Source: Escherichia coli | GTDB lineage: Bacteria; Pseudomonadota; Gammaproteobacteria; Enterobacterales; Enterobacteriaceae | Assembly: GCF_044324785.1 (NCBI RefSeq) | Contig: NZ_CP172127.1 | Reading direction: 5' to 3' (one strand) | Length of the DNA stretch: 64,000 nt | Shown here: piece after piece, positions 24,468-40,678 of the stretch | How positions within the stretch are numbered: position 1 is the stretch's first letter | Layout of the letters: the number at the start of each line of letters is the position of its first letter | Translations under genes and position numbers: made by a program | Notes under the pieces: model-generated | Told to the model about the DNA's origin: nothing | Databases searched by the model: none | The model's input: the letters and a program-made list of their open reading frames with translations, nothing else

Positions 24468-25208
24468 ATGTCAGTTATTGGTCGCATTCACTCCTTTGAA
24501 TCCTGTGGAACCGTAGACGGCCCGGGTATTCGCTTTATCACCTTTTTCCAGGGCTGCCTGATGCGCTGCCTGTATTGTCATAACCGCGACACCTGGGATA
24601 CGCATGGCGGTAAAGAAGTTACCGTTGAAGATTTAATGAAGGAAGTGGTGACCTATCGCCACTTTATGAACGCTTCCGGCGGCGGCGTTACCGCATCCGG
24701 TGGTGAAGCAATCCTGCAAGCCGAGTTCGTTCGCGACTGGTTCCGCGCCTGCAAAAAAGAAGGCATTCATACCTGTCTGGACACTAACGGTTTTGTTCGT
24801 CGTTACGATCCAGTAATTGATGAACTTCTGGAAGTGACCGACCTGGTAATGCTCGATCTCAAACAGATGAACGACGAAATCCACCAGAATCTGGTAGGCG
24901 TTTCCAACCATCGTACACTCGAGTTTGCTAAATATCTGGCGAACAAAAATGTGAAAGTCTGGATACGTTATGTCGTAGTACCTGGCTGGTCTGACGATGA
25001 CGATTCAGCTCATCGCCTCGGTGAATTTACTCGCGATATGGGTAACGTCGAAAAAATCGAGCTCCTCCCCTACCATGAGTTAGGCAAACATAAGTGGGTG
25101 GCGATGGGCGAAGAGTACAAACTCGACGGTGTGAAACCACCGAAAAAAGAAACCATGGAGCGAGTGAAAGGGATTCTTGAGCAATATGGTCATAAAGTGA
25201 TGTTCTAA
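24468..25208 (+). CDS. pflA: Pyruvate formate-lyase activating enzyme (radical SAM)
   Basis: ORF 24441..25208; start at [20 protein letters not shown]; CxxxCxxC motif CLYCHNRD. Confidence 0.95.
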
Positions 25209-25264
25209 AACATCATGTGCAGGCTGAATTCCGACCTGCCACCCCTTCCTTTAGTAGTAAAAAG

Positions 25265-25300
25265 TAAATCAGCGTTGAGAACATGCTCGACGCTGATTTA
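25265..25300. terminator. Bidirectional hairpin between the convergent pflA and bcsC-like genes
   Basis: TAAATCAGCG-N16-CGCTGATTTA inverted repeat. Confidence 0.55.
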
Positions 25301-25342
25301 CTGGATTTAATTTCCGAGTTTTAACCTTCTGATTCTACCTCA

Positions 25343-28300
25343 TTACCAGTCGGCGTAAGGTATCAGCGGCTGCGGCGGTAAATCCATGTCGCCCTGCCAT
25401 CCGGCGGCGGAATACCGCACGTAGAGCAGGAAATGGCTTGGCGCATAATCTTTCGCCTGCTGGATATCAATCGCCGTGCCGACAAACCAGTTGGACGTGA
25501 CGCGACGCTCAAGTAACGCCCGCGCCGTGTAGCCAAAGCCCTGACTGCTGCCGCCGTCGTTGGTCTGACTGGCGGCATCCTCTTTCCAGTCCGTCGGGAT
25601 CAGGTTCATCAGCGGATAACGCGGCATGGTTTTGGTGCGCGAATGCGACCACGAGCCAGACGCACCCAGCTCCCACGACCAGTTTTCCGTCCGCTCCCGC
25701 CACATCACCGGTATGGCAAACGACAGGTATTCCTGCGGGCTGTAGTAACCGCCCTGACCAAGTGAGTAGCCACTCAGGTCTTTGTCGTAATGCCAGATCA
25801 TATTGTTAAGACCAATGGTCACACGGCGATTATTCTGGTTGATGATCTTATAGTAATAGCCCGTCATCCAGCGCACGCGCCAGTTATCTTCGACATTTTT
25901 ACCGGTTAACTGGTCACCGCTAAGCGATGCCCAGACGCCGTTTGCTTCACCTTTATCGTAGCTCAGGCTTAGCCCCACGCCGTCGGCACGCACGCCGCCC
26001 CATTTTTTCCCGGTATTGCTCGGGGAGTCTTTTTGCCCGCCAAAGGCCAGCAAAGAACTGGAGATGGGCCGACGGTGGGCGTTAACGGTGTAACCCAGCG
26101 GCCCGATATCATCGCTGTAACTGATGCCGCCGACCACATCCACCACGTTGAAGCCCATCGGCGTGGTGCCGATATCCCAGCTCCAGACGTCATTTCGCCA
26201 GCCGACCGCCACGCTGGCACCGGAATCCGACTGGCTGCGGTTGCCGCTACAGTCCTGTAATGTACAGGTGCCCCAGTTGTCATCCCATTTGCCATCGGCA
26301 TTAGTGGAGAAACTGCCGACGTTCATATTGACGAAATCACTGCGAAAGAACATCCGCCCGTCAGAGTACGGCGCATCCACCTGCAACATGGTGGTGTGCG
26401 CTTTCAGATCGGAGTAACCACCGGTGCCGCTCGAACCCCAGTAATCGTGCTCGAGGGTGACGTTAAGATCCTGCTGGCGATAGAGGTCCGCTGCATCGCT
26501 GCGCACGCCGCGTTTCAGCCAGTCATCTTTCTCGTCGTTACGGGTCAGCCGGGTAAAGGTGTCGTTATCCTGCGGACGCGTCGTGGTCACACCGGATGCG
26601 ACCATCGCGTCTTTGTAGGTTTCCAGCGCCTGCGTTGGATCGCCCGCCTGCGCTTCAAACTTCGCACCGTCGCGCAGCACCATCGCGCTTTCCATCGACG
26701 GTGGCTGAGATTTTGCCTGCGGGATCAACTTATTAAACGTCTGCTGCGCCGCTGCGGTATCGCCAAGCTGCGCCTGCGCCAGCGCCACGCGCCGCTGAGT
26801 GTTCAGAGAGGCGTTATCAGTGGCGGGCAGTTTCGCCAGCTGGCTACGTGCCGCCGCTTTGTCACCGGCAGCAATATCCACTTCCGTCAGACCAAGAATG
26901 GCATCGGCGTTAGTTGGCTCCCGCGTCAGGACATTCTGATATGCAGCGCGAGCGGCGGTGTAATCACGTCGTTGTTGCGCCCAGTCAGCCAGCGTGAGGT
27001 CAATACGCGAGGAAGGCGGTTGCTGGCGCAGCATCGCTTCCGCTTCTGCCTCTTTGCCGCTTTCTCGCAGGCGATTAGCGGTTTCCAACACCTGATCGCT
27101 TTGCAGTCGATTAACCAGCTCCTGAATATTGCTGCTCCACTGCGCGCGCGGCAGGCTGTTGATATGCGCCAGCGCCGCTCTGTCCTGGTCATGACCAGAG
27201 AGATACAGCCCGTAAGCGTAAACCTGCTCCGGGTCGTTCGGCTTCTGCTGCGCCAGATTGCGCATTAACGTATCGGCCTGGCTGCGTTGTCCGGCCTGCC
27301 AGAGATCCTGTGAAAGTCGGTAAGTAATCCATACACTGCCGGGGTCCAGCGCCAGTCGCTGGCGCTGAAGTGCTGCTGCCTGCGCCCATTTGCCCTGTTT
27401 TTCCAGCGCTTCGGCCTGCTGTGACAAACGGTCATTTTGCAGGCTGCGTTCGATATCATCAATGCTACGCCGCTGACTGGCAGAGAGCGAGGCGATAAAC
27501 GCTTCAGCCTTTTCTGGCGATTGCTGGCGGTATATATTCGCCAGCCCGCGCACGGCGTTAGTGTTGCCGCTGTCCATACGCAAGGTCTGCTGATAATAAC
27601 GTTCGGCGGCGGGATAATCTTTTCGCGCCATCGCCACATCGCCCAGCCCCAGCACTGCATAGCTGTCGGTGTTATCGACATTACGCGCCTGCTGGAACAG
27701 GCGTTCTGCCCGGTCAGGATTATTGGCTTTCAGCGCAGCATCGCCCTGCTGGATCGCCAGCCAGTAGCGGTTTACTTTCAGGAGACTGTTCCATTTGTCG
27801 TTGTTGCTGCTGTGCGGATCCAGGGCGAGGGCTTTTTCCAGATTCGCCACCGCATTGGCGCGATCGCCTTTCTGAGAATACGCCTGGCCCAGCGCTCCAA
27901 ATATGGCACCAGAGTCAGGATTATCAATATTAAGTATTTTCAACTGACGAATCGCTTCGTTGCGACGGGAGGCAATTTGCGTCATTGCCCCCCAGTATTC
28001 CAGCGCCATTTCGATATCTGGCGGTGCACCGTTAAATAGCTTGTCGTAACTGTCGATAGCCTCTTTATGTCGCCCGGAGATAGCTTGTAAGCGTGCCATT
28101 TGCAGTGCCTGACGCCCCTCAGGCGAAGAAAGTCGCATGGCCGTGCGCGATGCTTTATATATTTTTGAATCAGGAGCGAGCAGGGAAAGTCTGGCAAGTT
28201 GTTTTTGCGCGCCTTCAATATCTCCCTTACGCAGCAGATAGCGAAAACGCGCCGCAACGACATCTGGATTATCAGGTTCCGCCAATTCAAGACGATAAAG

Positions 28301-28450
28301 CGACTGTTCGACCAGATCTTCACGATGAATGTCTTCGCCTAACCGAATCTGCGCCATTAACAGCTTGTGTGCAGTTGGTGTGGCTTTCGCCATCGACATT
28401 ACCGCCAAACCAAGGGATATTGTGAGTAAATTTAGGGTGAATTTGTACAT
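25343..28450 (-). CDS. BcsC-like exopolysaccharide export protein: N-terminal TPR repeats plus C-terminal outer-membrane beta-barrel
   Basis: 1035 aa; N-terminal signal peptide; long TPR-like repeat region; C-terminus rich in alternating aromatic/glycine strands and ending in W. Visibly more GC-rich than the genes upstream of it in the cluster. Confidence 0.8.
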   Translation of the reverse strand: MYKFTLNLLTISLGLAVMSMAKATPTAHKLLMAQIRLGEDIHREDLVEQSLYRLELAEPDNPDVVAARFRYLLRKGDIEGAQKQLARLSLLAPDSKIYKASRTAMRLSSPEGRQALQMARLQAISGRHKEAIDSYDKLFNGAPPDIEMALEYWGAMTQIASRRNEAIRQLKILNIDNPDSGAIFGALGQAYSQKGDRANAVANLEKALALDPHSSNNDKWNSLLKVNRYWLAIQQGDAALKANNPDRAERLFQQARNVDNTDSYAVLGLGDVAMARKDYPAAERYYQQTLRMDSGNTNAVRGLANIYRQQSPEKAEAFIASLSASQRRSIDDIERSLQNDRLSQQAEALEKQGKWAQAAALQRQRLALDPGSVWITYRLSQDLWQAGQRSQADTLMRNLAQQKPNDPEQVYAYGLYLSGHDQDRAALAHINSLPRAQWSSNIQELVNRLQSDQVLETANRLRESGKEAEAEAMLRQQPPSSRIDLTLADWAQQRRDYTAARAAYQNVLTREPTNADAILGLTEVDIAAGDKAAARSQLAKLPATDNASLNTQRRVALAQAQLGDTAAAQQTFNKLIPQAKSQPPSMESAMVLRDGAKFEAQAGDPTQALETYKDAMVASGVTTTRPQDNDTFTRLTRNDEKDDWLKRGVRSDAADLYRQQDLNVTLEHDYWGSSGTGGYSDLKAHTTMLQVDAPYSDGRMFFRSDFVNMNVGSFSTNADGKWDDNWGTCTLQDCSGNRSQSDSGASVAVGWRNDVWSWDIGTTPMGFNVVDVVGGISYSDDIGPLGYTVNAHRRPISSSLLAFGGQKDSPSNTGKKWGGVRADGVGLSLSYDKGEANGVWASLSGDQLTGKNVEDNWRVRWMTGYYYKIINQNNRRVTIGLNNMIWHYDKDLSGYSLGQGGYYSPQEYLSFAIPVMWRERTENWSWELGASGSWSHSRTKTMPRYPLMNLIPTDWKEDAASQTNDGGSSQGFGYTARALLERRVTSNWFVGTAIDIQQAKDYAPSHFLLYVRYSAAGWQGDMDLPPQPLIPYADW

Positions 28451-28562
28451 GCCTGCCTCAATCAGGTGTTAACTCACTTTTTATTAAAAACAGAACGGGC
28501 GCAGCTCCCTGCCTGTATAAAGTCAGGACAGAATGGAGCCGCAAAATAGAAATGATGATGAA

Positions 28563-29166
28563 TTACTGTTGATGAGGGTTCAGACGACGGCGACTAATGT
28601 TACGTAACAGACTCCATACTACCCACGCCAATAGCACCACACTGAGAGTTGCCAGCACTGCCAGTAGAATGGGATGTCTGGCTAACACATATTGCACTCG
28701 TTCAATCCAGGGGAGATGCCCAACGTAATAAGTATCTCCAACTCGTAAACTATTGATGCCAGATTCACGAATAACCGCGACTGAACCAAAAATATTGCCG
28801 CGTTTTGTACTATTAATTAACGCATTGTTGAGTAGCGTATCTCCGCGTGATCCCTCGGACATTAAAGCAATTACGCTGCGTTGGGTATGATATGGAGACT
28901 GAAAACCAACTATCGCCGCCATTGGCAATGGAGAATTTATAGTTGTTTGTATTTCAGGTTTTTGATCGTCGTTATCTGTCATAATTTTGGCGTAATCAGA
29001 GTGTCGTATTGGGCTTTTTACCCAACTTGTTGTTGCCTCAATGAGCAGATTAATTTGCTGATTGTCTGCAAATTCTTGCGGAAGTCTTCCTATTAACAGG
29101 ATATCTGAATCCTTGCCCTGGACAGAACCTATATCATCAGTAATTGTCAGATTAATTGCCGGAGAT
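28563..29166 (-). pseudogene. BcsB-like subunit, 3' fragment, separated from its 5' part by IS2
   Basis: Frame is open (no stops, checked codon by codon) from the IS2 junction at 29166 down to the stop at 28563; C-terminal TM anchor HPILLAVLATLSVVLLAWVVW...RRR typical of BcsB. In frame with the 5' fragment once IS2 and one GAGAT copy are removed. Confidence 0.8.
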
Positions 29167-29177
29167 TGGATTTGCCC

Positions 29178-30083
29178 CTATATTTCCAGACACCTGTTAT
29201 CACTTAACCCATTACTGGCCTGCTGCCGCAGATATTCCCGTGGCGAGCGATAACCCAGTGCACTATGCGGATGCCATTCGTTATAATGCTCGAACGCCTC
29301 TGCAAGGTTCTTTGCTGCCGTTAACCCGTCTGGTTTAGGCATGATACTGATGTAGTCACGCTTTATCGTTTTCACGAAGCTCTCTGCTATGCCGTTACTC
29401 TCCGGACTCCGCACCGCCGTGTTCTTCGGTTCAAGCCCCAACATCCGGGCAAACTGCCGTGTTTCATTAGCCCGGTAGCATGAACCATTATCCGTCAGCC
29501 ACTCTACTGGAGACGCCGGAAGCTCGTTGCCGAAGCGGCGTTCCACCGCTCCCAGCATTACGTCCTGTACTGTTTCACTGTCGAAGCCGCCCGTAGTGAC
29601 TGCCCAGTGCAGTGCCTCACGGTCACAGCAGTCCAGCGCGAACGTGACTCGCAGTTTTTCTCCGTTATCACAGCGGAACTCGAACCCGTCAGAGCACCAT
29701 CGTTGATTGCTTTCTTTCACGGCCACTTTGCCAGTATGTGCCCGTTTCGATGGCGGTACAGCGGTTTTTCGCTCAAGCAACAGCGCATTCTGGCGCATGA
29801 TCCGGTAAACACGTTTGGCATTGATCGCAGGCATACCATCAAGTTCGGCCTGTCTGCGAAGCAGCGCCCATACCCGACGATAACCATACGTGGGCAGCTC
29901 TCCGATAACATGGTGTATACGGAGAAGCACATCCGTATCATCTGAGTGACGGCTGCGGCGACCATCTTTCCAGTCATCGGTTCGTCTGAGAATTACGTGC
30001 AACTGCGCACGCGACACCCGGAGACAACGGCTGACTAAGCTTACTCCCCATCCCCGGGCAATAAGGGCGCGTGCGCTATCCAC
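29178..30083 (-). CDS. insD: IS2 transposase OrfB (InsD; DDE integrase domain)
   Basis: 301-aa [33 protein letters not shown]...; overlaps orfA near a T6/A6G slippery run at about 30084-30090. Confidence 0.9.
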
Positions 30084-30406
30084 TTTTTTGCACGCCCGTA
30101 TTCAACGGCTTCTTTAAGGAGTTCATTTTCCATCGTTTTTTTGCCGAGCAGGCGCTGGAGTTCTTTAATCTGCTTCATGGCAGCAGCAAGTTCAGAGGCA
30201 GGAACGACCTGCTCTCCTGCGGCCACAGCAGTAAGACTTCCCTCCTGGTATTGCTTGCGCCAGAGAAATAACTGGCTGGCTGCCACACCGTGTTGCCGGG
30301 CAACAAGGGAGACCGTCATTCCCGGTTCAAAACTCTGCTGAACAATAGCGATCTTTTCCTGTGTAGTACGCCGTCTGCGTTTCTCCGGTCCTAAGACATC
30401 AATCAT
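30041..30406 (-). CDS. insC: IS2 OrfA (InsC; helix-turn-helix)
   Basis: [40 protein letters not shown]... Confidence 0.9.
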
Positions 30407-30497
30407 CTGCTCTCCAATGACTAGTCTAAAAACTAGTATTAAGACTATCACTTATTTAAGTGATATTGGTTGTCTGGAGATTCAGGGGGCCAGTCTA

Positions 30498-32199
30498 GAG
30501 ATCCAGTTTGAGCACCAATCAGTCCAAGGGTATTTAATAATGTTTCAACTTGCGTTGTGCCAGGATTTTCAGGCATAACCACAACCGTTTCTGATAGATC
30601 GGCCATGCGGCTAAATGGAAAGCCTGAGCTGGCAAAAGCGCGTAAATCTGGCATTGCGATAAAGTGATGGTACTTTGAAAAATCGATAGTGGAATCATCT
30701 GCAATAACCGCATGATTTTTTAGCGACCGGGAAATAATACAGCTATCGGCATCAGAGCGCGGCATTGTATTAACGTACTCAAAATTAAATCGCAATTGAT
30801 TAAGCGCCCCTAACGTCAGCGCAGGAATGTTAATTTCATTATTACCATCCAACAATTCTTGCAATAACGGTAAACGTAACAATAACCTATCAGTAGCAGA
30901 TTGCGGACTCAGCCGGAAAGATTCAAGGTACTGGTTATTAAGGCTGACATCCATGCGTGAACCACCTATCGTTGGCGTGGTATAACGATAGTTAATCTTC
31001 ATCTCACCCCCACGATTACGCAATAGAAAGAGATCAGGTGGCAAATTAAATGAAACATTAATTGCCGCAGACTCCAGGGCACTTGCCTGTAACTGCCCTT
31101 CATAATTTTTAAGCTCTGCGAAAGTTACAGGACGATCAGTGCGTATCCAGTTTGGCGCATCATAAGGTTTACGCGGCAGTAACGGCTTCACGTCATTTAC
31201 GACCACGCTATCGCCGCGAAATAATATATTTCCCTGTGCAAGGCCTTTTGCCGCCTGTAATAAATCTTTATCATCGCGGCCCAAAAGTACCAGCAATTTG
31301 ACAAAGGGATTTTGTGGATGACTGATCATTTTAATAACAGGCGCATTCACCAACGGATGCTCGCGCAGAAAGTCTGGGCGTCTATTGTTCGTGGCAAAGA
31401 CTACTGCATTACTTTCCGGTAACTGGTTATAGAAAACCGGAAATCGGTGACCACGCCAGCCAGATTGCGAACCAAACCACGAAGCGACAATAGCTGATAC
31501 CTGCTGCAAACCAGTCCCAGGAGTACCGGCAAAAACCATCGGCAATGTATTAGGGCGGTTATCTCGCGGATCAAAGAACGGTACAGGAAGATATGAAAGA
31601 TCATTTTTCAAATTGAGTCTCTGAACTACCAGTTCAAGTTCACTGGTACGTCCAATATCAAGCCACAAATTGCCGCTGGTCGGGTTTTCGCAGGCGCTCT
31701 GGTAGTGACTAATTAATTCTAGGCGCAAGCGATTAAAATCCGAAAAATACAATGGGTTAAGAGTTATTTCCGCCAGCGTTTTCTTCCCCAGTTGTTCTTT
31801 GGTAATCGGCAATACCTCCATCAACTCGTCATTAAGATAGACCTTAAGCTGTGACTGGACCGGGATCAGCGACGGTGATGGAGTGTATTCAAGTTTTAGT
31901 TTCGCTTCTGACACTATTTCATCGCTACGCATACCAAACTCAATTTGCCCCTGTGGGTTAACTCCATTCAGGACTATGTTTCCTGGCGCTGGTGCGATTT
32001 GTGTAAATGGGAGTTTAAAATAGCGAGATGGCTCTTTCACATAAGCAGAGATATTTTCTTTCGGGATAGCGGGTAATACTCCGACTGAGGAAGGCTTATG
32101 AATTACTGTATCTGTAGCCGATGCTGTATTTGCCTGGTAAAAACATAGTAACCCCAAGCCAATTATTGCAGCACTTAATCTCAAAAATTTTCTTTCCAT
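30498..32199 (-). pseudogene. BcsB-like periplasmic subunit, 5' fragment, truncated by the IS2 insertion
   Basis: ORF 30448..32220 reads into IS2; probable start MERKFLRLSAAIIGLGLLCFYQANTASA (signal peptide); BcsB-like blocks such as EFGMRSDE and LKVYLNDELMEVLP. Confidence 0.8.
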
Positions 32200-32258
32200 T
32201 TTAAAAAATTCAACAACCATAATAAATACAAATAATATATTTAATTAGCAATCAGAAA

Positions 32259-34379
32259 TTAGAACTGACTTTTAGAACTGCCTTTCAGTGTCCGGAGAAT
32301 ATAAAAAACCATATTGCAATAACCTTTCAGAGAGATAAAACATATTTCAATAAAACTCTTTAAAATATTGTCTCGTTTAATTTTATCATTCCACTCTTGC
32401 CATAGTGAATCACGAGAAAACGTTGCTCTGACATAATTAACATTTTGTTCATGACTCATTGGCATAATCTTCAGACCAATTTTATTATTGTAGGCATGAA
32501 CTATTTCTACCGGTATATCACACTTTCCGTTACTATCATCCAGATAAAGAGACAACCGCTGTGTTTTAACAATATTTTTTACGTCGGAGATATTATCAAG
32601 GATAACGCCTAATCCTCCTTCGGAAAAATCAAGAACAGAACAAGGATAGCTCCGTCCATCTTCCAGTTGTATAACGCCCTTGAAAGAAACATCAATACGG
32701 GGAGAAAAACGCACCTGCTTTTGTTCAATAGAAACAGCCAAAGTTGCGCCAATAATAATTGTATTATAAAACAGCCAAATCAAACAAAAAAAATTCAGGA
32801 TGGCGATATGCCCTTGCAAACTATAAACATTAACAATACCTATTATCAGTCCAATTACATTTAAAATGGCAAAAATAAGATAGGGGTAGGAAATTCGCCA
32901 GTCAACAAACTTATTTTTTATCAGCCCTCCTTTGGCCGTAACGTTGAAACGCCCTTTTGCTGGTGCAAGTAAAGCTACAAGAGTTGGTAGCGTAATATAC
33001 CAAGCCAGAACCATTTCATAAATCTCATTCCAGAATGAATGTCTGTATTTACCCTGTACTCTTGAATTAGTTAAAATAATAACAAATAAATAAGGTAAAA
33101 CATAAGACATAATATCTGCAACCGATGCTTCGATCAGGTTGACCGAAAAGAAAATAGGACATAACGGTGCGAACAAGAAAATCAGTCGTGGCACACCTGA
33201 TAAAAAATGCATCATGCTGCTGAGATAGCAAAGGCGCTGTGATAATGTCAGCCCCTTGCCCAATAATGGATTGTCAATACGCAAGATTTGAATCATGCCT
33301 CGAGCCCATCGAATCCGTTGTCCAATATGAGCAGACAATGTTTCTGTGGCTAGCCCGGCAGCCAGAGGATAGCGAAGATATGCAGAGCTATAACCTGCAC
33401 GATGCAAGCGTAACGACGTATGCGCATCTTCAGTTACTGTTTCGACTGCAATGCCTCCAACCTCATCCAGAGCAGATCTACGGATGATTGCACATGAACC
33501 ACAAAAAAATGAAGCATTCCATGTATCCGTACCATTCTGGATTAACCCATAAAAAAGGTGTCCTTCATTTGGCTTTTGCCGAAACTGCCCCAAATTTCGC
33601 TCAAAAGGATCGGGGGAAAAAAAATGATGTGGTGTTTGCAACATCGATAATTTTTTATCTGCAATAAACCAGCCCATCGTTTTCTTTAAAAAAGATACCG
33701 AGGGTATATGATCGCAATCGAAAATAGCAACAAATTCGCCATTAGCTATTTTAAGCGCATTATTTATATTTCCGGCCTTAGCATGTTCATGTGTTTCTCT
33801 TGCGACATAGTAAATTCCTGACTCGTTCGCAAATTTCCTGAACTCATCCCTGGCGCCATCATCAAGGATCCAGATATGTAATTTATCCTTTGGCCAGTCT
33901 AAAGCCAACGCACCATAAACTGTATTCTTCACGACTGTAAAAGGTTCGTTATATGTGGGTATTAATATATCTACGATGGGCCATTCTTCTTTATTCTCTG
34001 GTAAAGGTATACTTTCTCTGTTCAGCGGGAAGCAAACCTGAAAGTAACCAAGTAATAAAACAAACCAAGCATACGTTTCAGCAGTTAATAACGTGACTGA
34101 AAATAAGCAGTCTGGAAATTCATTCAGGATGACTGAAGAAGAGTACCGCCACCATAGATATCGGGATGAGATGAGTATTCCAACACCCATTAATATCAGG
34201 GTAATCATCCTTCCCTTGAACAAATTAAGGAAAATGACAGCGATGCAAATAATAATTGAAAATAATATTTGTTGATAAAATCCAAGTGGCTGCTCAACAA
34301 TTGATAAAAAGACAAAACATAGCAATATAGCAACAACCAAAAGGATTTTGTTTAATATTTCTTTATTTTTTAAGATCAT
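32259..34379 (-). CDS. BcsA-type processive family-2 glycosyltransferase (cellulose-synthase-like) with C-terminal PilZ c-di-GMP receptor domain
   Basis: 706 aa; DDG, DCD, TED and QRIRW catalytic motifs; FFCGS; gating-loop FNVTAK; PilZ RFSPR (RxxxR) and DFSEGG (DxSxxG); multiple TM helices. Very AT-rich DNA. Confidence 0.85.
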   Translation of the reverse strand: MILKNKEILNKILLVVAILLCFVFLSIVEQPLGFYQQILFSIIICIAVIFLNLFKGRMITLILMGVGILISSRYLWWRYSSSVILNEFPDCLFSVTLLTAETYAWFVLLLGYFQVCFPLNRESIPLPENKEEWPIVDILIPTYNEPFTVVKNTVYGALALDWPKDKLHIWILDDGARDEFRKFANESGIYYVARETHEHAKAGNINNALKIANGEFVAIFDCDHIPSVSFLKKTMGWFIADKKLSMLQTPHHFFSPDPFERNLGQFRQKPNEGHLFYGLIQNGTDTWNASFFCGSCAIIRRSALDEVGGIAVETVTEDAHTSLRLHRAGYSSAYLRYPLAAGLATETLSAHIGQRIRWARGMIQILRIDNPLLGKGLTLSQRLCYLSSMMHFLSGVPRLIFLFAPLCPIFFSVNLIEASVADIMSYVLPYLFVIILTNSRVQGKYRHSFWNEIYEMVLAWYITLPTLVALLAPAKGRFNVTAKGGLIKNKFVDWRISYPYLIFAILNVIGLIIGIVNVYSLQGHIAILNFFCLIWLFYNTIIIGATLAVSIEQKQVRFSPRIDVSFKGVIQLEDGRSYPCSVLDFSEGGLGVILDNISDVKNIVKTQRLSLYLDDSNGKCDIPVEIVHAYNNKIGLKIMPMSHEQNVNYVRATFSRDSLWQEWNDKIKRDNILKSFIEICFISLKGYCNMVFYILRTLKGSSKSQF

Positions 34380-34463
34380 TATACTTAGCGATTCATTAAC
34401 AATACAGCTTGAATAGTGTGATTTTTATAAACATTGATGACCAATGCCATGCAAATTTAAATA

Positions 34464-35795
34464 TCAACACCACGTTATCTGTGCTCTGCCATTTTGCTTA
34501 CTTTTGTATAACCGTTCATCTGCCAGCAATTTCAACCGTTCAATGTTATTCATGCACTCATCTGTACTGGCAACTCCTATGCTGCAACTACAATTTAACC
34601 CACCGATTGCGAAATGAACAACTCTGTGCAAAATTCTTGATAGTTTATTTTTATCTTTCTCATAATAAATAATAGCAAACTCATCACCGCCAAACCGGTA
34701 TATTTCCCCTTCACGACGGGGTAACTCATCTTTAATAAGGTTAACAAGTTTGATGAGTACTTCATCACCAAACAGATGGCCAAACTTATCATTAATGGTT
34801 TTAAATTTATCCACATCAAATAGACACAGGTAGCCAAAATTCTTGCTCAGCATCTTGATTTCCTTATCAAAACTCCGACGACCAGAAGCCCGAGTTAATG
34901 CATCACAAGTGCCAAAGTCATATATCTCTCGAATTGCATTAATCTCTTCCGTATTAAAGAATAGATTTTCTCCACATAAATCATATTGATGATTCGATAA
35001 TATAGATTCTTTTTCCAATCTACCCTTATTTATAATATTTCGTAGTAATTTAATATAATAAACATACAGTATAACTGCAGATATTGCCGATGCAAAAACG
35101 AATAGCATACATATATAGAGATATTTACTTTTTTTATAGGCAACAATAAACATCATTTCTGGAAGGTAAGAATACGACAGAGTGATAGCTGACATCTCAA
35201 ATACAGCATCATTTATCAAAAAATCATCACCTGTGATTTTCTTTTCATTATCATTAATATCATAAAATGAGATATAGATATCTTCTCGTTCCCCTGACTG
35301 ATTTCTAATCAAAGATAAATAACGTTCAGGATCTACCACTGATATCAAAATTGTTCGTTTGGCAATGGGATGAGCATAATAAACATAGTACTTATCTTTT
35401 AAACCAATAACACCTCTCTCAAATTCGTTCATTACTCGAATAGAGGAAACTATGTCGCCACAAAAATCATCCCCTTTCGTTGTAACTTTGATACATTTAC
35501 CATCGCTAATAATATAAGGACCGAGATCATACAAATATCCAGGATTTTCATAGCCAGCAAAGCTATTGCGTATTTTTTTTACCAATTCTTCTGGGGCAAT
35601 ATCTAGTTCATAAAATATATCATTAGATACTGAGCGGCGATACTCAGAAACATTAGCTATTGCAAGCCCACTATCTACAATAGATACCTTCACCGAATTA
35701 ATGCGGCCCTTAACATAAATGGTGTATAAATAACAAGTTACTACAGCGACGAACAAAAAACAGATTACTGCCGCCTTTTTCTTATATTTGAACAT
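34464..35795 (-). CDS. Membrane-bound diguanylate cyclase (two TM helices flanking a periplasmic sensor, then GGDEF)
   Basis: 443 aa; intact RFGGDEF active-site motif; no RxxD I-site five residues upstream; about 200-aa periplasmic region containing a Cys pair. Confidence 0.8.
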   Translation of the reverse strand: MFKYKKKAAVICFLFVAVVTCYLYTIYVKGRINSVKVSIVDSGLAIANVSEYRRSVSNDIFYELDIAPEELVKKIRNSFAGYENPGYLYDLGPYIISDGKCIKVTTKGDDFCGDIVSSIRVMNEFERGVIGLKDKYYVYYAHPIAKRTILISVVDPERYLSLIRNQSGEREDIYISFYDINDNEKKITGDDFLINDAVFEMSAITLSYSYLPEMMFIVAYKKSKYLYICMLFVFASAISAVILYVYYIKLLRNIINKGRLEKESILSNHQYDLCGENLFFNTEEINAIREIYDFGTCDALTRASGRRSFDKEIKMLSKNFGYLCLFDVDKFKTINDKFGHLFGDEVLIKLVNLIKDELPRREGEIYRFGGDEFAIIYYEKDKNKLSRILHRVVHFAIGGLNCSCSIGVASTDECMNNIERLKLLADERLYKSKQNGRAQITWC

Positions 35796-35799
35796 TGCT

Positions 35800-38148
35800 T
35801 TATTTTCTTTTTTTCGGTTTGCTGTCTATATGCCATTCTGAAAACGGTAGCGGTTTCTGGTATAAGTATCCCTGAACATGAGAGAATCCTAATTTTTGCA
35901 ATTCTCTGGCCTGACTTTCAGTTTCAACACCTTCAGCTATTACCGGCATATTTTCTTCACGAGCAAGGCTGGATATAAAGTACACAATTTTGTTAGTTTC
36001 GTTGAAAATACCAGAGGTAAACTCTGAATCAATTTTAATACTATCAGGTCTTACTTTATAAAGTTTTTTCAGGTCAGCTAATCCACTACCGAAATCATCA
36101 AGAGAAATCTTGATACCGTTTTCTTTTAAAATGTTTATATTATTGTAAAAGCTATCATTTATATCTTTTACTGCTGACTCGGTGATCTCCAGACAGATTT
36201 GTTCAGCATTTACATCAAATGCATTAATTAAAGTAAGAACACGAGTGTGGAAGTCAATTTCATTTAATTGCCATGGAGAAACATTGATATGCAGGAGAAA
36301 ATCGTTAGCAACCTCATATTCACGGCTAAAGGCACCAAATTCGCTAATAGCCGTTTCGAGAATAAAATCACCCAGTTCTTTAATTAATCCTATTTCTTCA
36401 GCAACAGGTACAAAAATTGATGGCGGTATTGCCCCATTTTCGACGGATAACCAGCGGCATAACGCCTCAGCACCGACAACCCTATTATTATCCATATCAA
36501 CAATCGGTTGATATACTAAATAAAGTTCACTACTCAAAATCGCTTTTTTTATATTTCCTGCCACCCAGACCTTTTGATCAAGTTCATGAACTTTGATATC
36601 ATCATAAAACATAAATTCAGATTCTTTATTTTCCCGCATAGCTGTTAATGCCAGTTTCAACTTCCCTTCATAAATCGAAACATTTTCCCCTGAAAAAGTT
36701 TCACAAATGGCAATCTTATGAATATAAATATTTCTTATGCAAAATATATGTTCAGGGAAGTTTAAAACAGATAATCTTTCGATGAACTCTTCGCAGTGCG
36801 TGTGGCACAGCAACAAGTATGTTTCAGTTGAGAATTTTACGATATCACAATATTTTGAATATTTTTGTGAAATCTTCGATTTTATATCATTAACAATTTC
36901 ATAAAATTTCTGACTTCCATATATCGCCTCAACAAACTCTAATCCATAGATGCAAAGCATACCAACTGCCAAATAGGTTTTATTATTAGTTTCAATAACA
37001 GCCTTATTAATATAGAAACAACTTCCTTGTTCATAGGACACAAGATTAAGTAAACGGTCCATACGCTCCTTGTATTTATCACTGATATTATTAATGATTT
37101 TTTTGAGTTCAACAATTTCGCTACTATCATTTTGCACAATATCAATTGTGTCATTGCGATATACTGAGTTAGCTAATTTTTTCAGATGTTCTATTAGTTT
37201 ACTGGATTCTCGTTTAATTTTTTTTGTTATATTTTCAACGATATACCATAATAAACAGAAACAAACCAAGCCACATAAAAACATCAATGTAAAATATTTA
37301 TTGATGTTTGCATCTTCTGCTTTTTGATAGTAAAAGTAATGGAATCTGACATCAGGAAGCCTGGGGAGTGAGATAATATTGTCTGTATAGTTTCCACTAT
37401 TATTACTTATGTTATAACTTCCCGATGACTCACGGACAATAAGATGTAACATTGATTTTTCATTACCTACCATTATCCTTTTATTTTGTTCCATGAATAG
37501 AATATCAGCATCACTACCTAGTTTATTTAAAAAATTACTGAAATATTTTTCATCAAGATCCAGATGCATTAACTTCAGAGCAAATGAATCTTTTTCTTCT
37601 TCGGATGGCCGTAGTGAAAACGAAAAACATTTTTTTCCGGCAATACCATAACAATTATACCATGGTGACCATTTTGAATAAGTCCCTGCCGGTAATTTAT
37701 TCCAGGGGCGTGATTCCGGGTTAAAGTAGTTATCGCTAATATTACCATCGTCCCCAATAAAAGGTTTGCCGGCTTCTGATTTCCCCAGGAATTTTACCTC
37801 ACCATCCTCAGTTCGAATAAAGCTAAGATAGTTTCCATTATTGAGCATTATCCCTACTAAATTAACAGCGTCTATTTTTTTCATGCGATGAAGGACTGCT
37901 CGCTTTATTTCACCTTCATCATTTAACAGATAAATTGCATCTTTTAATGCATCAGCCTCTTTTTCAACTTTAGAAAAAAAATTATTCAAATTGTTATTGA
38001 TGAGTATAAGGTTAATCCGTGAAGAGTTTTCTGCTATTTTTTTATGGAAGTCAATTGCGGTAATAAATGAAAAGACAATATAGACAGTAACAGCTAATAT
38101 AACCGCAGTGTTAAATCTTGAGTTTAATTTTTCGGTAATGCTATACAT
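35800..38148 (-). CDS. Membrane-bound c-di-GMP phosphodiesterase (periplasmic sensor, degenerate GGDEF-like linker, EAL)
   Basis: 782 aa; EAL-domain residues present (GAEALCRW, QICLEITES, ISLDDFGSG, IKIDSEF, AEGVETE, VQGYLYQKP); no GGDEF motif in the middle domain; two TM helices flank a roughly 250-aa periplasmic region. Confidence 0.8.
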   Translation of the reverse strand: MYSITEKLNSRFNTAVILAVTVYIVFSFITAIDFHKKIAENSSRINLILINNNLNNFFSKVEKEADALKDAIYLLNDEGEIKRAVLHRMKKIDAVNLVGIMLNNGNYLSFIRTEDGEVKFLGKSEAGKPFIGDDGNISDNYFNPESRPWNKLPAGTYSKWSPWYNCYGIAGKKCFSFSLRPSEEEKDSFALKLMHLDLDEKYFSNFLNKLGSDADILFMEQNKRIMVGNEKSMLHLIVRESSGSYNISNNSGNYTDNIISLPRLPDVRFHYFYYQKAEDANINKYFTLMFLCGLVCFCLLWYIVENITKKIKRESSKLIEHLKKLANSVYRNDTIDIVQNDSSEIVELKKIINNISDKYKERMDRLLNLVSYEQGSCFYINKAVIETNNKTYLAVGMLCIYGLEFVEAIYGSQKFYEIVNDIKSKISQKYSKYCDIVKFSTETYLLLCHTHCEEFIERLSVLNFPEHIFCIRNIYIHKIAICETFSGENVSIYEGKLKLALTAMRENKESEFMFYDDIKVHELDQKVWVAGNIKKAILSSELYLVYQPIVDMDNNRVVGAEALCRWLSVENGAIPPSIFVPVAEEIGLIKELGDFILETAISEFGAFSREYEVANDFLLHINVSPWQLNEIDFHTRVLTLINAFDVNAEQICLEITESAVKDINDSFYNNINILKENGIKISLDDFGSGLADLKKLYKVRPDSIKIDSEFTSGIFNETNKIVYFISSLAREENMPVIAEGVETESQARELQKLGFSHVQGYLYQKPLPFSEWHIDSKPKKRK

Positions 38149-39247
38149 ACTGGTGTTCTGACTAAAATGTTATCAATAGCTTTAATATAAGATCGTATAA
38201 AGTTCTGTATATTAGCCGATGTTACCCTCCTCTTTATGACTTTCTTAATTTCATTATCCCCATATAACAAATATGTCATGATGAGAAGATTAATTTTTTC
38301 TTAATTTCCACAAGTGATTATCATGCTTCTTATTTTAACCAGAACAATATTGTTATATGTAACACTCATCTTTGTATCTTTCACCCACGCTACCGCCTTT
38401 CGTTAATCATTCAACGAAATAATTTAGATATGAAAAAATTACCCTGTAACAACACAACTAGCACATCCTGCCGAGTTGTGACATCTACTCTATAATTATC
38501 CAAAAGAGGTATTAGTATCTATTGTCAGTAATCCATTCTGTTTATTTATCTTATTTAAGACATGTGTAATACGACTCTCTTAGCCCAAATATATTAATCA
38601 GTAACTTTAAAGTAAGATTTAGTCAGAAAGTGATCGTGAAAATTTCACTGCCCAGGCTGTAATTTGTCCATCAACCTAACAGATAAATATTTTCAGGAAC
38701 ACACGTTCGATAAAACAATAGATGCAACATTAGAGCACTATTTTATTTTTAAAACAAAAGACTGTGAACTACACCAGGCATGAGAAGATTCTGTCGTGAG
38801 ATGATTTTTTCCAGATTAAAACACTATAAAATATAACTTTTACAGAATATTACGCCAGTAAATCAATATGCCATCTGCATATTCAAACAATAACTGCAAT
38901 CATTCTCAGCAAATTTAACCATAATTAGCAACGTGCAAATTCATTGATGCAGATCAAAAATCCGAGTTTACATTACCAATCTTTGTTGAAAATTTAGCCG
39001 TAAAAATCATGTTATTACTATACGCAAGAGTTTACTCCAGAGCCCAAAATAATAACTTGCAAAATAACCAATAATTAAAACTATCACCATATCTAAAAAT
39101 AAAGGTCTCCGATAACTAAAATTCGTATTATCACGGTAGCGTTGATATTCTTCCATCTCTTAAGAAAAACTTAACTTTTACCCTATCAGGCCTGATCTAA
39201 TTTTAAACTATTTGATATCATAGCCCCGGCGAACCGGGGCATGATGA

Positions 39248-40678
39248 CTATTTTGTATTCGCTTTACGTGCAAGCAGCGGGAATATCAGCCCCAGTCCAA
39301 CGAGGACAAATGGCGTAGTTATGTTCAGTGCCAATTGGAATGTCCACTCTGCAGTGAAGGCTTCCATTTTAGGGAAAATTCCTGTCAGGCAGGCAAAAGC
39401 GGTAAAGGCAAAACACCAAATTCCGACGGTCATTGCCAGCGGCTTATTACGAATAAAGACATATTCCGGCTTATATTTCTGCGCCAGGCGAACAACTGCA
39501 ATAAATGCAACAAATACCCATAAATAACGCAGCGGCATCACTACCGAGTTAAGATTCAACAGCCATTTATAGAGATTGTTCATATCACCAATGCCGAGAG
39601 TCGGCAGCATTATCAGGATCGCCACCAGCACCAGGGTCAGAAAATAGCCATTAACGGGCGTACCAGAAGCGTTGGTACGACATAAACTGGCTGGAATATA
39701 TTTGCTGTCAGCATCGCCTAATAACACTTTAAGCGGCGCATCAATCGAGAATACCAGCGCAGCTACTTGTCCCAGGGTATTCGCAATGGCATAAATCACC
39801 ATTAAAGTATTACCCATGTTGTAATACTCGCCCAGCTTCTGAAAGGCGTAATACTGACCGTTAGTCATTAAGTCATCCGGGATATTACGCGAGTCAAACA
39901 TCATCCCCATCGCCAGTGAGCCCAGAATGGCACAAACCGCAACCATCACCGCCAGACATAACATCCCTTTTGGAAATTCTTTTCCTGGGTTGCGCGTTTG
40001 ATTAACGTAAGGAGAAATCTTCTCTGCTCCGCCAACCGCGAAAACCAGCATTGAAATAGTGGTAATGTAGGTAAAGTCGATATGAGGAATGAACGTTTCC
40101 CAGGTAATGTTTGTGGTCGCAATATGCACTTCAGTAATCGCAGGCGCGGTTACCGCCATCGCCACATACAGGAGCGACATAACAAACATCGCAATCCCTG
40201 CCACAGAACCGACGATTTTCAGCGATTTCATACCGCGTGAAGCAACCCACATAAAGAAGATAAACAGCACCAGCGTTAACCCCTGTAACGCTACGACTGA
40301 ATATTCTTTGATTAGCGAACCGTCGCCTTTCATCGCCCAACCGAGCGCAATCAGTATTGCCTGGGGTTTTTGTGCCAGATAGGGAATATGCACTACCCAG
40401 TAGGTCCACGCGGCGAGGTAAGCCAGTCCGGGTCCCATCGTGTGTTTAATCCAGGTACTGACCCCGCCCTTCCCATCTTTGAAGGTCGAGCCTAACTGAC
40501 CAACAATTAGCGCATAAGGTGTGAAATAGAGCGCAAAGATAAACACCCACGAAAAAACAACCACCAGCCCCTGGTTGGCGTAGTTATTAACAACGTTGCC
40601 AAAACCCCAGACAGTGATAAAAGACATCAGCGCAATGTTGTACCATCGCAGCTGTTTTTCCTGAACATTCCCAGCCAT
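39248..40678 (-). CDS. ycaM: APC-family amino-acid/polyamine transporter YcaM
   Basis: ORF 39248..40870; likely start at the internal MAGNVQEKQLRWYNIALMSF...; polytopic membrane protein. Confidence 0.85.
   Translation of the reverse strand: MAGNVQEKQLRWYNIALMSFITVWGFGNVVNNYANQGLVVVFSWVFIFALYFTPYALIVGQLGSTFKDGKGGVSTWIKHTMGPGLAYLAAWTYWVVHIPYLAQKPQAILIALGWAMKGDGSLIKEYSVVALQGLTLVLFIFFMWVASRGMKSLKIVGSVAGIAMFVMSLLYVAMAVTAPAITEVHIATTNITWETFIPHIDFTYITTISMLVFAVGGAEKISPYVNQTRNPGKEFPKGMLCLAVMVAVCAILGSLAMGMMFDSRNIPDDLMTNGQYYAFQKLGEYYNMGNTLMVIYAIANTLGQVAALVFSIDAPLKVLLGDADSKYIPASLCRTNASGTPVNGYFLTLVLVAILIMLPTLGIGDMNNLYKWLLNLNSVVMPLRYLWVFVAFIAVVRLAQKYKPEYVFIRNKPLAMTVGIWCFAFTAFACLTGIFPKMEAFTAEWTFQLALNITTPFVLVGLGLIFPLLARKANTK

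Follow-up and report, generated by a model that had tools for sequence, protein, structure and literature searches.

A diverged pdeI-dgcI cassette with CHASE9 and GAPES2 sensors adjoins an accessory cellulose synthase in an Escherichia coli island

Escherichia coli K-12 carries two adjacent genes, pdeI (yliE, b0833) and dgcI (yliF, b0834), which code for a membrane phosphodiesterase and a membrane diguanylate cyclase of cyclic di-GMP (c-di-GMP) turnover. Here, we analyzed a related pair of genes located in a window of E. coli DNA, i.e., the whole analyzed stretch of 64 kb (64,000 nucleotides) from contig NZ_CP172127.1 of the RefSeq assembly GCF_044324785.1. The first gene (35800..38148) codes for a 782-amino acid (aa) EAL protein, referred to as PDE, and the second one (34464..35795) for a 443-aa GGDEF protein, referred to as DGC. 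Based on their open reading frames (ORFs), Pfam domains, and homology to K-12, they were annotated as a PdeI(YliE)-like c-di-GMP phosphodiesterase and a DgcI(YliF)-like diguanylate cyclase. Both genes belong to an island with accessory cellulose synthase genes. All positions refer to the window, and all features described below are encoded on the minus strand.

Among the described systems, the K-12 pair is the closest one. Spurbeck 2012 (PMC3484386) listed YliE with a complete set of EAL residues, and YliF without the inhibitory site (I-site) and with a complete active site (A-site). The overexpression of K-12 PdeI gives resistance to phage N4, as does that of other phosphodiesterases (PMC7553319, PMC8669469). 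The second point of reference is the preprint of Hosseinpourlamardi et al. from the Römling lab (bioRxiv 10.1101/2025.05.09.653004). It describes accessory BcsA2-4 clusters in Escherichia and reports that YliE/YliF homologues adjoin the chromosomal accessory bcs clusters, with the hypothesis that they synthesize and degrade the c-di-GMP by which the synthase is activated. A third comparison is offered by DgcC and PdeK, likewise a membrane cyclase and a membrane phosphodiesterase, for which a local action on a PilZ-gated BcsA has been proposed (Richter et al. 2020, PMC7397504). The pdeK gene also adjoins its bcs operon, and PdeK combines a degenerate GGDEF domain with an EAL domain, the same arrangement as proposed for PDE. 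However, DgcC and PdeK are unrelated to the island proteins outside the catalytic domains. DgcC has a MASE2 membrane domain and not a periplasmic sensor. PdeK was considered as the nearest relative of PDE and rejected, since the likeness is limited to the EAL domain (28% identity).

PDE is collinear with K-12 PdeI over 780 of the 782 residues (39% identity, 62% positives, and 5 gaps only), whereas DGC shares 42% identity with DgcI over 440 residues. The gene order is the same, the protein lengths nearly so (782 vs 782 aa and 443 vs 442 aa), and in both cases a CHASE9...EAL protein is accompanied by a GAPES2-GGDEF protein. Intact EAL and GGDEF motifs, the lack of the I-site, and invariant pairs of periplasmic cysteines are common to the two pairs as well. 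They differ in their surroundings. The K-12 genes are 7 nt apart and lie beside gsiABCD and rimO, whereas in the island DGC starts 4 nt downstream of the end of PDE on the same strand, and the pair is placed upstream of bcsA-bcsB-bcsC. Judged by homology, PDE is a member of the PdeI (YliE) family of membrane c-di-GMP phosphodiesterases, and DGC, by the same measure, is a member of the DgcI (YliF) family of membrane diguanylate cyclases. The sequence data indicate that the island pair consists of diverged, horizontally acquired copies of the known E. coli pdeI-dgcI cassette.

The membrane topology was predicted from Kyte-Doolittle hydropathy with a 19-residue window, which gave exactly two transmembrane (TM) helices in each protein. 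In PDE, the helices span aa 14-32 (38053..38109; hydropathy of 2.39) and aa 286-304 (37237..37293; hydropathy of 2.44), and the second one is followed by five lysine or arginine residues within the next 15 positions. They enclose a periplasmic loop of 253 residues (aa 33-285; 37294..38052). On the cytoplasmic side, there is a linker (aa 305-~355), which looks like a two-helix, HAMP-like element by eye only, and a middle domain (aa ~355-532), together covering 36553..37236. The protein ends with the EAL domain (aa 533-766; 35851..36552; Pfam EAL, E 2.4e-64). In DGC, the helices at aa 8-26 and 227-245 enclose a periplasmic loop of 200 residues (aa 27-226; 35118..35717), and the GGDEF domain follows at aa 297-438 (34482..34907; PF00990, E 2.4e-24). 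The predicted cytoplasm-facing flanks of the helices are rich in lysine and arginine in both proteins. In the preliminary description of this stretch, made from the sequence alone, both enzymes were given the order TM helix, periplasmic domain of 200-250 aa, TM helix, and cytoplasmic output, and the hydropathy analysis agrees with it.

The catalytic domains were examined for the residues required for activity. All catalytic and metal-binding motifs of the EAL domain are present in PDE (EALCR, the asparagine of HINVS, EITE, DDFGSG, IKID, EGVE, and QGY), as determined by alignment to the EAL domain structure of DosP (4hu3) and by family comparison. Judged by these motifs, PDE is apparently intact as a catalyst. 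The A-site of DGC is also intact, with RFGGDEF, the upstream DxDxFKxINDxxGHxxGD motif, and the downstream KxxGR motif (FDVDKFKTINDKFGHLFGDEVL...RFGGDEF...KSKQNGR). At the I-site position, DGC has RREG, which aligned opposite RQSD of 3ign and RRSD of 4urs; the arginine is kept and the aspartate of RxxD is absent. The same position reads RREG, LSKG, VDKG, SDYG, or GFNF in the five clades of the DgcI family that were compared. Because the I-site is absent in all five, its absence is a trait of the whole family and not of DGC alone. The intact EAL and GGDEF domains and the missing RxxD had all been noticed in the preliminary description and were borne out here.

A small difference was observed in the first TM helix of DGC. 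Strain N3 carries an intact copy of the island; over ~7.9 kb, two substitutions and a deletion of 9 nt are the only differences from the window. The deletion is in-frame (~35751-35759, codons 13-15) and removes three residues (FLY/YFL) of the helix in comparison with N3 and with another strain, E7-1N7, both of which read AAVICFLYFL... (window, AAVICFLFVAVV; N3, AAVICFLYFLFVAVV). The loss of three residues might shift the register of the helix and affect signalling.

The periplasmic domains had been regarded as unrecognizable and possibly as new sensor types. This claim was not upheld, since both match catalogued Pfam families. The PDE sensor contains CHASE9 (PF17153) at aa 35-150 with an E-value of 6.3e-39, and the DGC sensor is GAPES2 (PF17156) at aa 23-229 with an E-value of 2.2e-39. 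Both periplasmic regions were modelled with AlphaFold2, using small family alignments as an input. Each predicted structure shows a double-Cache fold, composed of a long N-terminal helix and two PAS-like alpha/beta modules. In PDE, CHASE9 is followed by a second PAS-like module, which matches the label "CHASE9-xCache" used in the preprint (bioRxiv 10.1101/2025.05.09.653004), and the GAPES2 model of DGC is compact and double-Cache-like. According to these models, both sensors are double-Cache-type folds. At the sequence level, neither PDE nor DGC gave a match to Pfam dCache_1, dCache_2, or dCache_3 at E up to 10, and neither matched the Pfam CSS-motif domain. Thus, among the Cache, CHASE, and CSS types that had been proposed for checking, CHASE9 was found by Pfam and the double-Cache fold by AlphaFold2, whereas CSS found no Pfam match. 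The known dCache sensors McpU (6f9g), PctA (9koo), KinD (4jgo), and CqsR (9nia) share only 5-17% sequence identity with the island sensors. Compared with the dCache sensors of chemoreceptors, histidine kinases, and cyclases, GAPES2 is shorter (~200 aa), and the island sensors carry an invariant pair of cysteines. Kinship between the two sensors was also considered and rejected, as none was detectable by hhalign of the family alignments (E 0.12). CHASE9 and GAPES2 are therefore different families, which makes two separate inputs plausible.

Few columns of the sensors are invariant across the clades, and the cysteine pairs are among them. These are C166 and C174 together with W160 in PDE, and C101 (35493-35495) and C112 (35460-35462) in DGC; K-12 PdeI and DgcI have the pairs too. 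In PDE, the two cysteines (37717-37719 and 37693-37695) flank a short beta-hairpin loop, CYGIAGKKC. Most likely, the pair in each sensor forms a periplasmic disulfide of structural or regulatory importance. Both pairs could be redox-sensitive. We also noted an R-P-W motif in the PDE sensor (37711-37719, aa 144-146), which reads SRPWN in the island, KRPWS in K-12, and ERPWY in the plasmid variants. We take it to resemble the RxWY carboxylate-binding motif of the amino-acid-sensing dCache_1 domains, and this presumed likeness is a lead for the ligand class only. In the PdeI-like genes of two plasmids (L003 9001-11313 and L006 9001-11349), a tandem (Ile-Asn-Ser)n repeat was found inside CHASE9. 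The copy number of this 9-nt repeat differs between the two proteins, which match in all other respects (770 vs 782 aa), and the length variation could stem from slipped-strand mispairing.

The middle domain of PDE (aa ~355-532) is conserved, with 20 invariant columns among 7 diverse family sequences and a ratio of nonsynonymous to synonymous substitution rates (dN/dS) of 0.075. It gave no Pfam match in any of the seven family members scanned and no relevant sequence match in the PDB, even when a family profile was used. In hhalign against a GGDEF alignment, the score was 20.9 with P of 0.0097, a marginal result that was equalled by 1 of 100 column shuffles; STETY was placed on GGDEF and VSYEQGS on DxLTG. 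A second, independent GGDEF alignment gave the same register over 154 columns, without significance (10 of 100 shuffles). With a hidden Markov model built from 81 GGDEF domains, the real middle-domain sequences scored no better than shuffled ones. The domain is called a divergent GGDEF in the preprint (bioRxiv 10.1101/2025.05.09.653004) and in eLife 2024 (PMC11651652). It is plausible that it represents a putative, highly degenerate GGDEF-like domain, as had been proposed from the sequence at first.

The gene next to the pair codes for an accessory cellulose synthase, BcsA, of 706 aa (32259..34379), and begins 84 bp after DGC. The protein exceeds the cut-off of the BcsA equivalog model (NCBIfam NF008558, 1014 bits vs 992) and has all the glycosyltransferase motifs and a PilZ domain at aa 555-651 (32427..32717; Pfam, E 5.7e-11). 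Hence, the position of the pair directly upstream of a PilZ-gated synthase, pointed out in the preliminary description, is correct. BcsA is 53% identical to K-12 BcsA, aligning to K-12 residues 150-836, and 73% identical to the plasmid-encoded BcsA2 of strain S56. The accessory bcs type 2 and 3 clusters, as described in the preprint (bioRxiv 10.1101/2025.05.09.653004), likewise consist of bcsABC only, have YliE/YliF homologues next to them, and are restricted to Escherichia. Their BcsA lacks the ~150-aa N-terminal extension of the core BcsA and keeps PilZ, also as in the island. On these grounds, the island is assigned to the accessory Escherichia bcs clusters of type 2/3, away from the core bcs locus. 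In the preprint text that was consulted, there is no mention of an IS2 disruption, a chimeric bcsC, a four-gene version in E. fergusonii, or a dCache fold of GAPES2.

The next gene, bcsB, is interrupted. Its 5' fragment (30498..32220) comprises codons 1 to ~566 of 766, and the NCBIfam BcsB match ends at position 566 of 766, below the cut-off. The 3' fragment (28563..29166) would code for the C-terminal membrane anchor and is collinear with the bcsB of N3 (L001 8402..9005). Between them lies a complete IS2 element of 1331 bp (29167..30497), which entered the gene near codon 566 of 766 and is flanked by a target duplication of 5 bp. The alignment with N3 breaks at 29166/30498, and 5 bp of N3 (L001 9001-9005) occur on both sides of the break. 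The identification of IS2 is further supported by the transposase ORFs and by IS2/IS3-family annotations. BcsA requires the C-terminal membrane anchor of BcsB for its activity. IS2 splits bcsB and severs this anchor, so the synthase output is probably dead in the window strain. Both signalling genes are intact in the strain, but their presumed output is probably lost.

The last gene of the cluster, bcsC (25343..28450; 1035 aa), is a chimera, as determined by blastp and blastn against K-12 bcsC (L009 7701-11174). Residues 165-1035 match residues 287-1157 of the core-genome K-12 BcsC with 97% identity (96% for the nucleotides). The first 164 residues, on the other hand, reach only ~36% identity, and the total length falls short of that of K-12 BcsC by 122 aa. 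The GC content at third codon positions (GC3) changes along the island from 0.64 in bcsC through 0.39 in bcsB and 0.33 in bcsA to 0.28 in the genes of DGC and PDE, and the identity to the K-12 counterparts changes in the same direction (97%, 65%, 53%, and ~40%). These gradients, together with the occurrence in E. fergusonii of a version without bcsC, suggest that pde-dgc-bcsA-bcsB was the original module. They also suggest that bcsC was recruited from the resident operon by recombination.

The whole island, pde-dgc-bcsA-bcsB::IS2-bcsC, is 14,040 bp long (25209..39248), as delimited by the breaks of K-12 homology. The homology stops at 39249 (the stop codon of ycaM) and restarts at 25208 (the stop codon of pflA), so the island takes the place of K-12 ycaN-ycaK. 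The GC content over pde, dgc, and bcsA is 30-38%. Whereas pdeI-dgcI was described as core genome in the preprint (bioRxiv 10.1101/2025.05.09.653004), only 9 of the 5426 complete E. coli genomes carried the island at a query coverage of at least 80%. In strain E7-1N7, an allele of 85% identity occupies the same pflA-ycaM site with all five genes intact. Against this allele, dN/dS was 0.09 for pde, 0.13 for dgc, 0.07 for bcsA, and 0.07 for bcsC, with 0.11 and 0.20 for the two sensors. Such low values indicate that, across the population, the genes are functional and evolve under purifying selection. IS1 insertions occur in other island carriers (matches H5-H7), and in the plasmid copy of strain S56 the GGDEF and EAL genes are fragmented; the module seems to decay often.

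The four genes pde-dgc-bcsA-bcsB also occur elsewhere. In E. fergusonii (L011), they are present at another chromosomal site, without bcsC, and code for proteins of 68% identity, and on IncHI1B plasmids, the proteins are ~35% identical. A word-index search with the full-length PDE returned an excess of generic EAL proteins but not even K-12 PdeI; the plasmid variants were recovered by tblastn. With the N-terminal 520 aa of PDE, 20 matches at E up to 1e-3 were obtained among 1.84 billion cluster representatives, and all the named family members come from Escherichia (coli, fergusonii, marmotae, ruysiae) or Salmonella. Thus, no donor outside Escherichia and Salmonella was identified among these representatives with the first 520 aa of PDE.

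Between ycaM and the start of PDE, there is a non-coding region of 1.1 kb with ~31% GC (38149-39248), from which the island is likely regulated. No ORF in this region was convincing, and its repeats are short and chance-like. AT-rich foreign DNA like this leader is typically silenced by H-NS. The Rfam search of the leader and of the pair itself returned only sub-threshold chance matches and no riboswitch. The scan of this region for promoters and terminators was uninformative, with 16 promoter-like sites vs 26 expected from shuffled sequences.

Taken together, we favour, with a probability of about 60%, the explanation that the pair is a diverged pdeI-dgcI cassette in an acquired, AT-rich cellulose island and sets the activity of the accessory synthase, probably at short range. 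According to this explanation, the CHASE9 and GAPES2 sensors would read different periplasmic cues. On one cue DGC, predicted to be free of product inhibition, would provide c-di-GMP for the opening of the PilZ gate in the accessory BcsA, and on another cue PDE would remove this c-di-GMP. As the linkage is seen in three genomic contexts, the synthase may plausibly be under dedicated local control. The local c-di-GMP pool that had been suggested for this locus would find its support in the same recurrent linkage.

Several observations weigh against this explanation. Cassettes that lack adjoining bcs genes are found beside gsiABCD and rimO in K-12 and between insertion sequence (IS) elements on the plasmids L003 and L006, so that the term "dedicated" is weakened. 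To our knowledge, no ligand of the two sensors has been described. The alignment statistics do not establish the PDE middle domain as GGDEF-like. According to the preprint (bioRxiv 10.1101/2025.05.09.653004), YliF homologues were never shown to stimulate cellulose synthesis, and no experiment ties any PdeI or DgcI homologue to cellulose. In K-12, DgcI could not be detected under laboratory conditions, and its overproduction is toxic (PMC5635695). Finally, the overexpression of K-12 PdeI was found to raise c-di-GMP 11-fold, an effect lost in a point mutant of the middle domain (eLife 2024, PMC11651652), so the reports on PdeI activity conflict, with the N4 assay on one side and the rise of c-di-GMP on the other.

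Of the other explanations considered, the best surviving one, which we nevertheless regard as unlikely, is that pde-dgc is a self-contained signalling module, which supplies the general c-di-GMP pool or another target and is often carried along with bcsAB on mobile DNA as a passenger, not as a dedicated regulator of the synthase. The solitary cassettes of K-12, L003, and L006 fit such a role, as does the lack of demonstrated stimulation of cellulose synthesis by YliF homologues, which is noted in the preprint. It is also in line with the finding that overexpressed PdeI acts on DgcJ/NfrB and is thus not target-specific at high dosage (PMC7553319, PMC8669469). However, three unrelated genomic contexts show the same arrangement pde-dgc-bcsA-bcsB across 35-88% protein identity, and the four genes share a very low GC3 of 0.28-0.39, with short gaps of 4 and 84 nt at pde-dgc and dgc-bcsA.

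We consider it less probable still that PDE and DGC form one complex in which PDE mainly regulates the cyclase, as a trigger enzyme or a part of a heteromeric sensor, so that one signal flips the net synthesis or degradation of c-di-GMP. The genes are always adjacent and in the same order, with translational coupling or overlap between them (spacing of 4, 7, -4, and -11 nt). PDE and DGC diverge in step across the clades, but this co-divergence rests on only about four independent clades. The conserved, non-catalytic middle domain of PDE (dN/dS as given above) would suit a regulatory role, and such a complex could explain the 11-fold rise of c-di-GMP and its loss in the middle-domain mutant. 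On the other hand, all the EAL catalytic residues are kept in all clades, which argues for real hydrolysis, and overexpressed PdeI acts like other phosphodiesterases in the N4 assay. Moreover, the two sensors show no sequence relationship.

A more far-reaching version, which we find doubtful, would join PDE and DGC into one heteromeric sensing unit, whose disulfide-stapled double-Cache domains would read a redox state or a metabolite from the host or the environment and would turn the synthase on and off strictly locally, with the middle domain as an allosteric relay. The whole would then be a mobile sensor-plus-synthase cartridge, and if this were true, it would move between Escherichia chromosomes and plasmids as one unit. 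Very improbable, in turn, is the idea that the periplasmic domains are redox and not ligand sensors, with DsbA/DsbB toggling the cysteine pairs as in the CSS-domain phosphodiesterases: both pairs are periplasmic and belong to the very few columns invariant in all clades, but no match to the Pfam CSS-motif domain was obtained for PDE or DGC, periplasmic cysteines at such a short distance usually form plain structural disulfides, and the dCache fold normally binds small ligands.

The explanation in which the pair sets the activity of the accessory synthase thus remains our preferred one. The result of this analysis is mainly corrective, as it stops the claim of a new sensor type. Both families, PdeI/YliE with CHASE9 and DgcI/YliF with GAPES2, are already catalogued, and the placement beside accessory synthase clusters and the hypothesis of local signalling were already reported in the 2025 preprint. 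The window strain is unsuitable for studying the pair because IS2 disrupts bcsB. Strains with an intact island, such as N3, E7-1N7, or E. fergusonii, would offer a cleaner system than K-12, in which DgcI is undetectable and no target of the pair is known.

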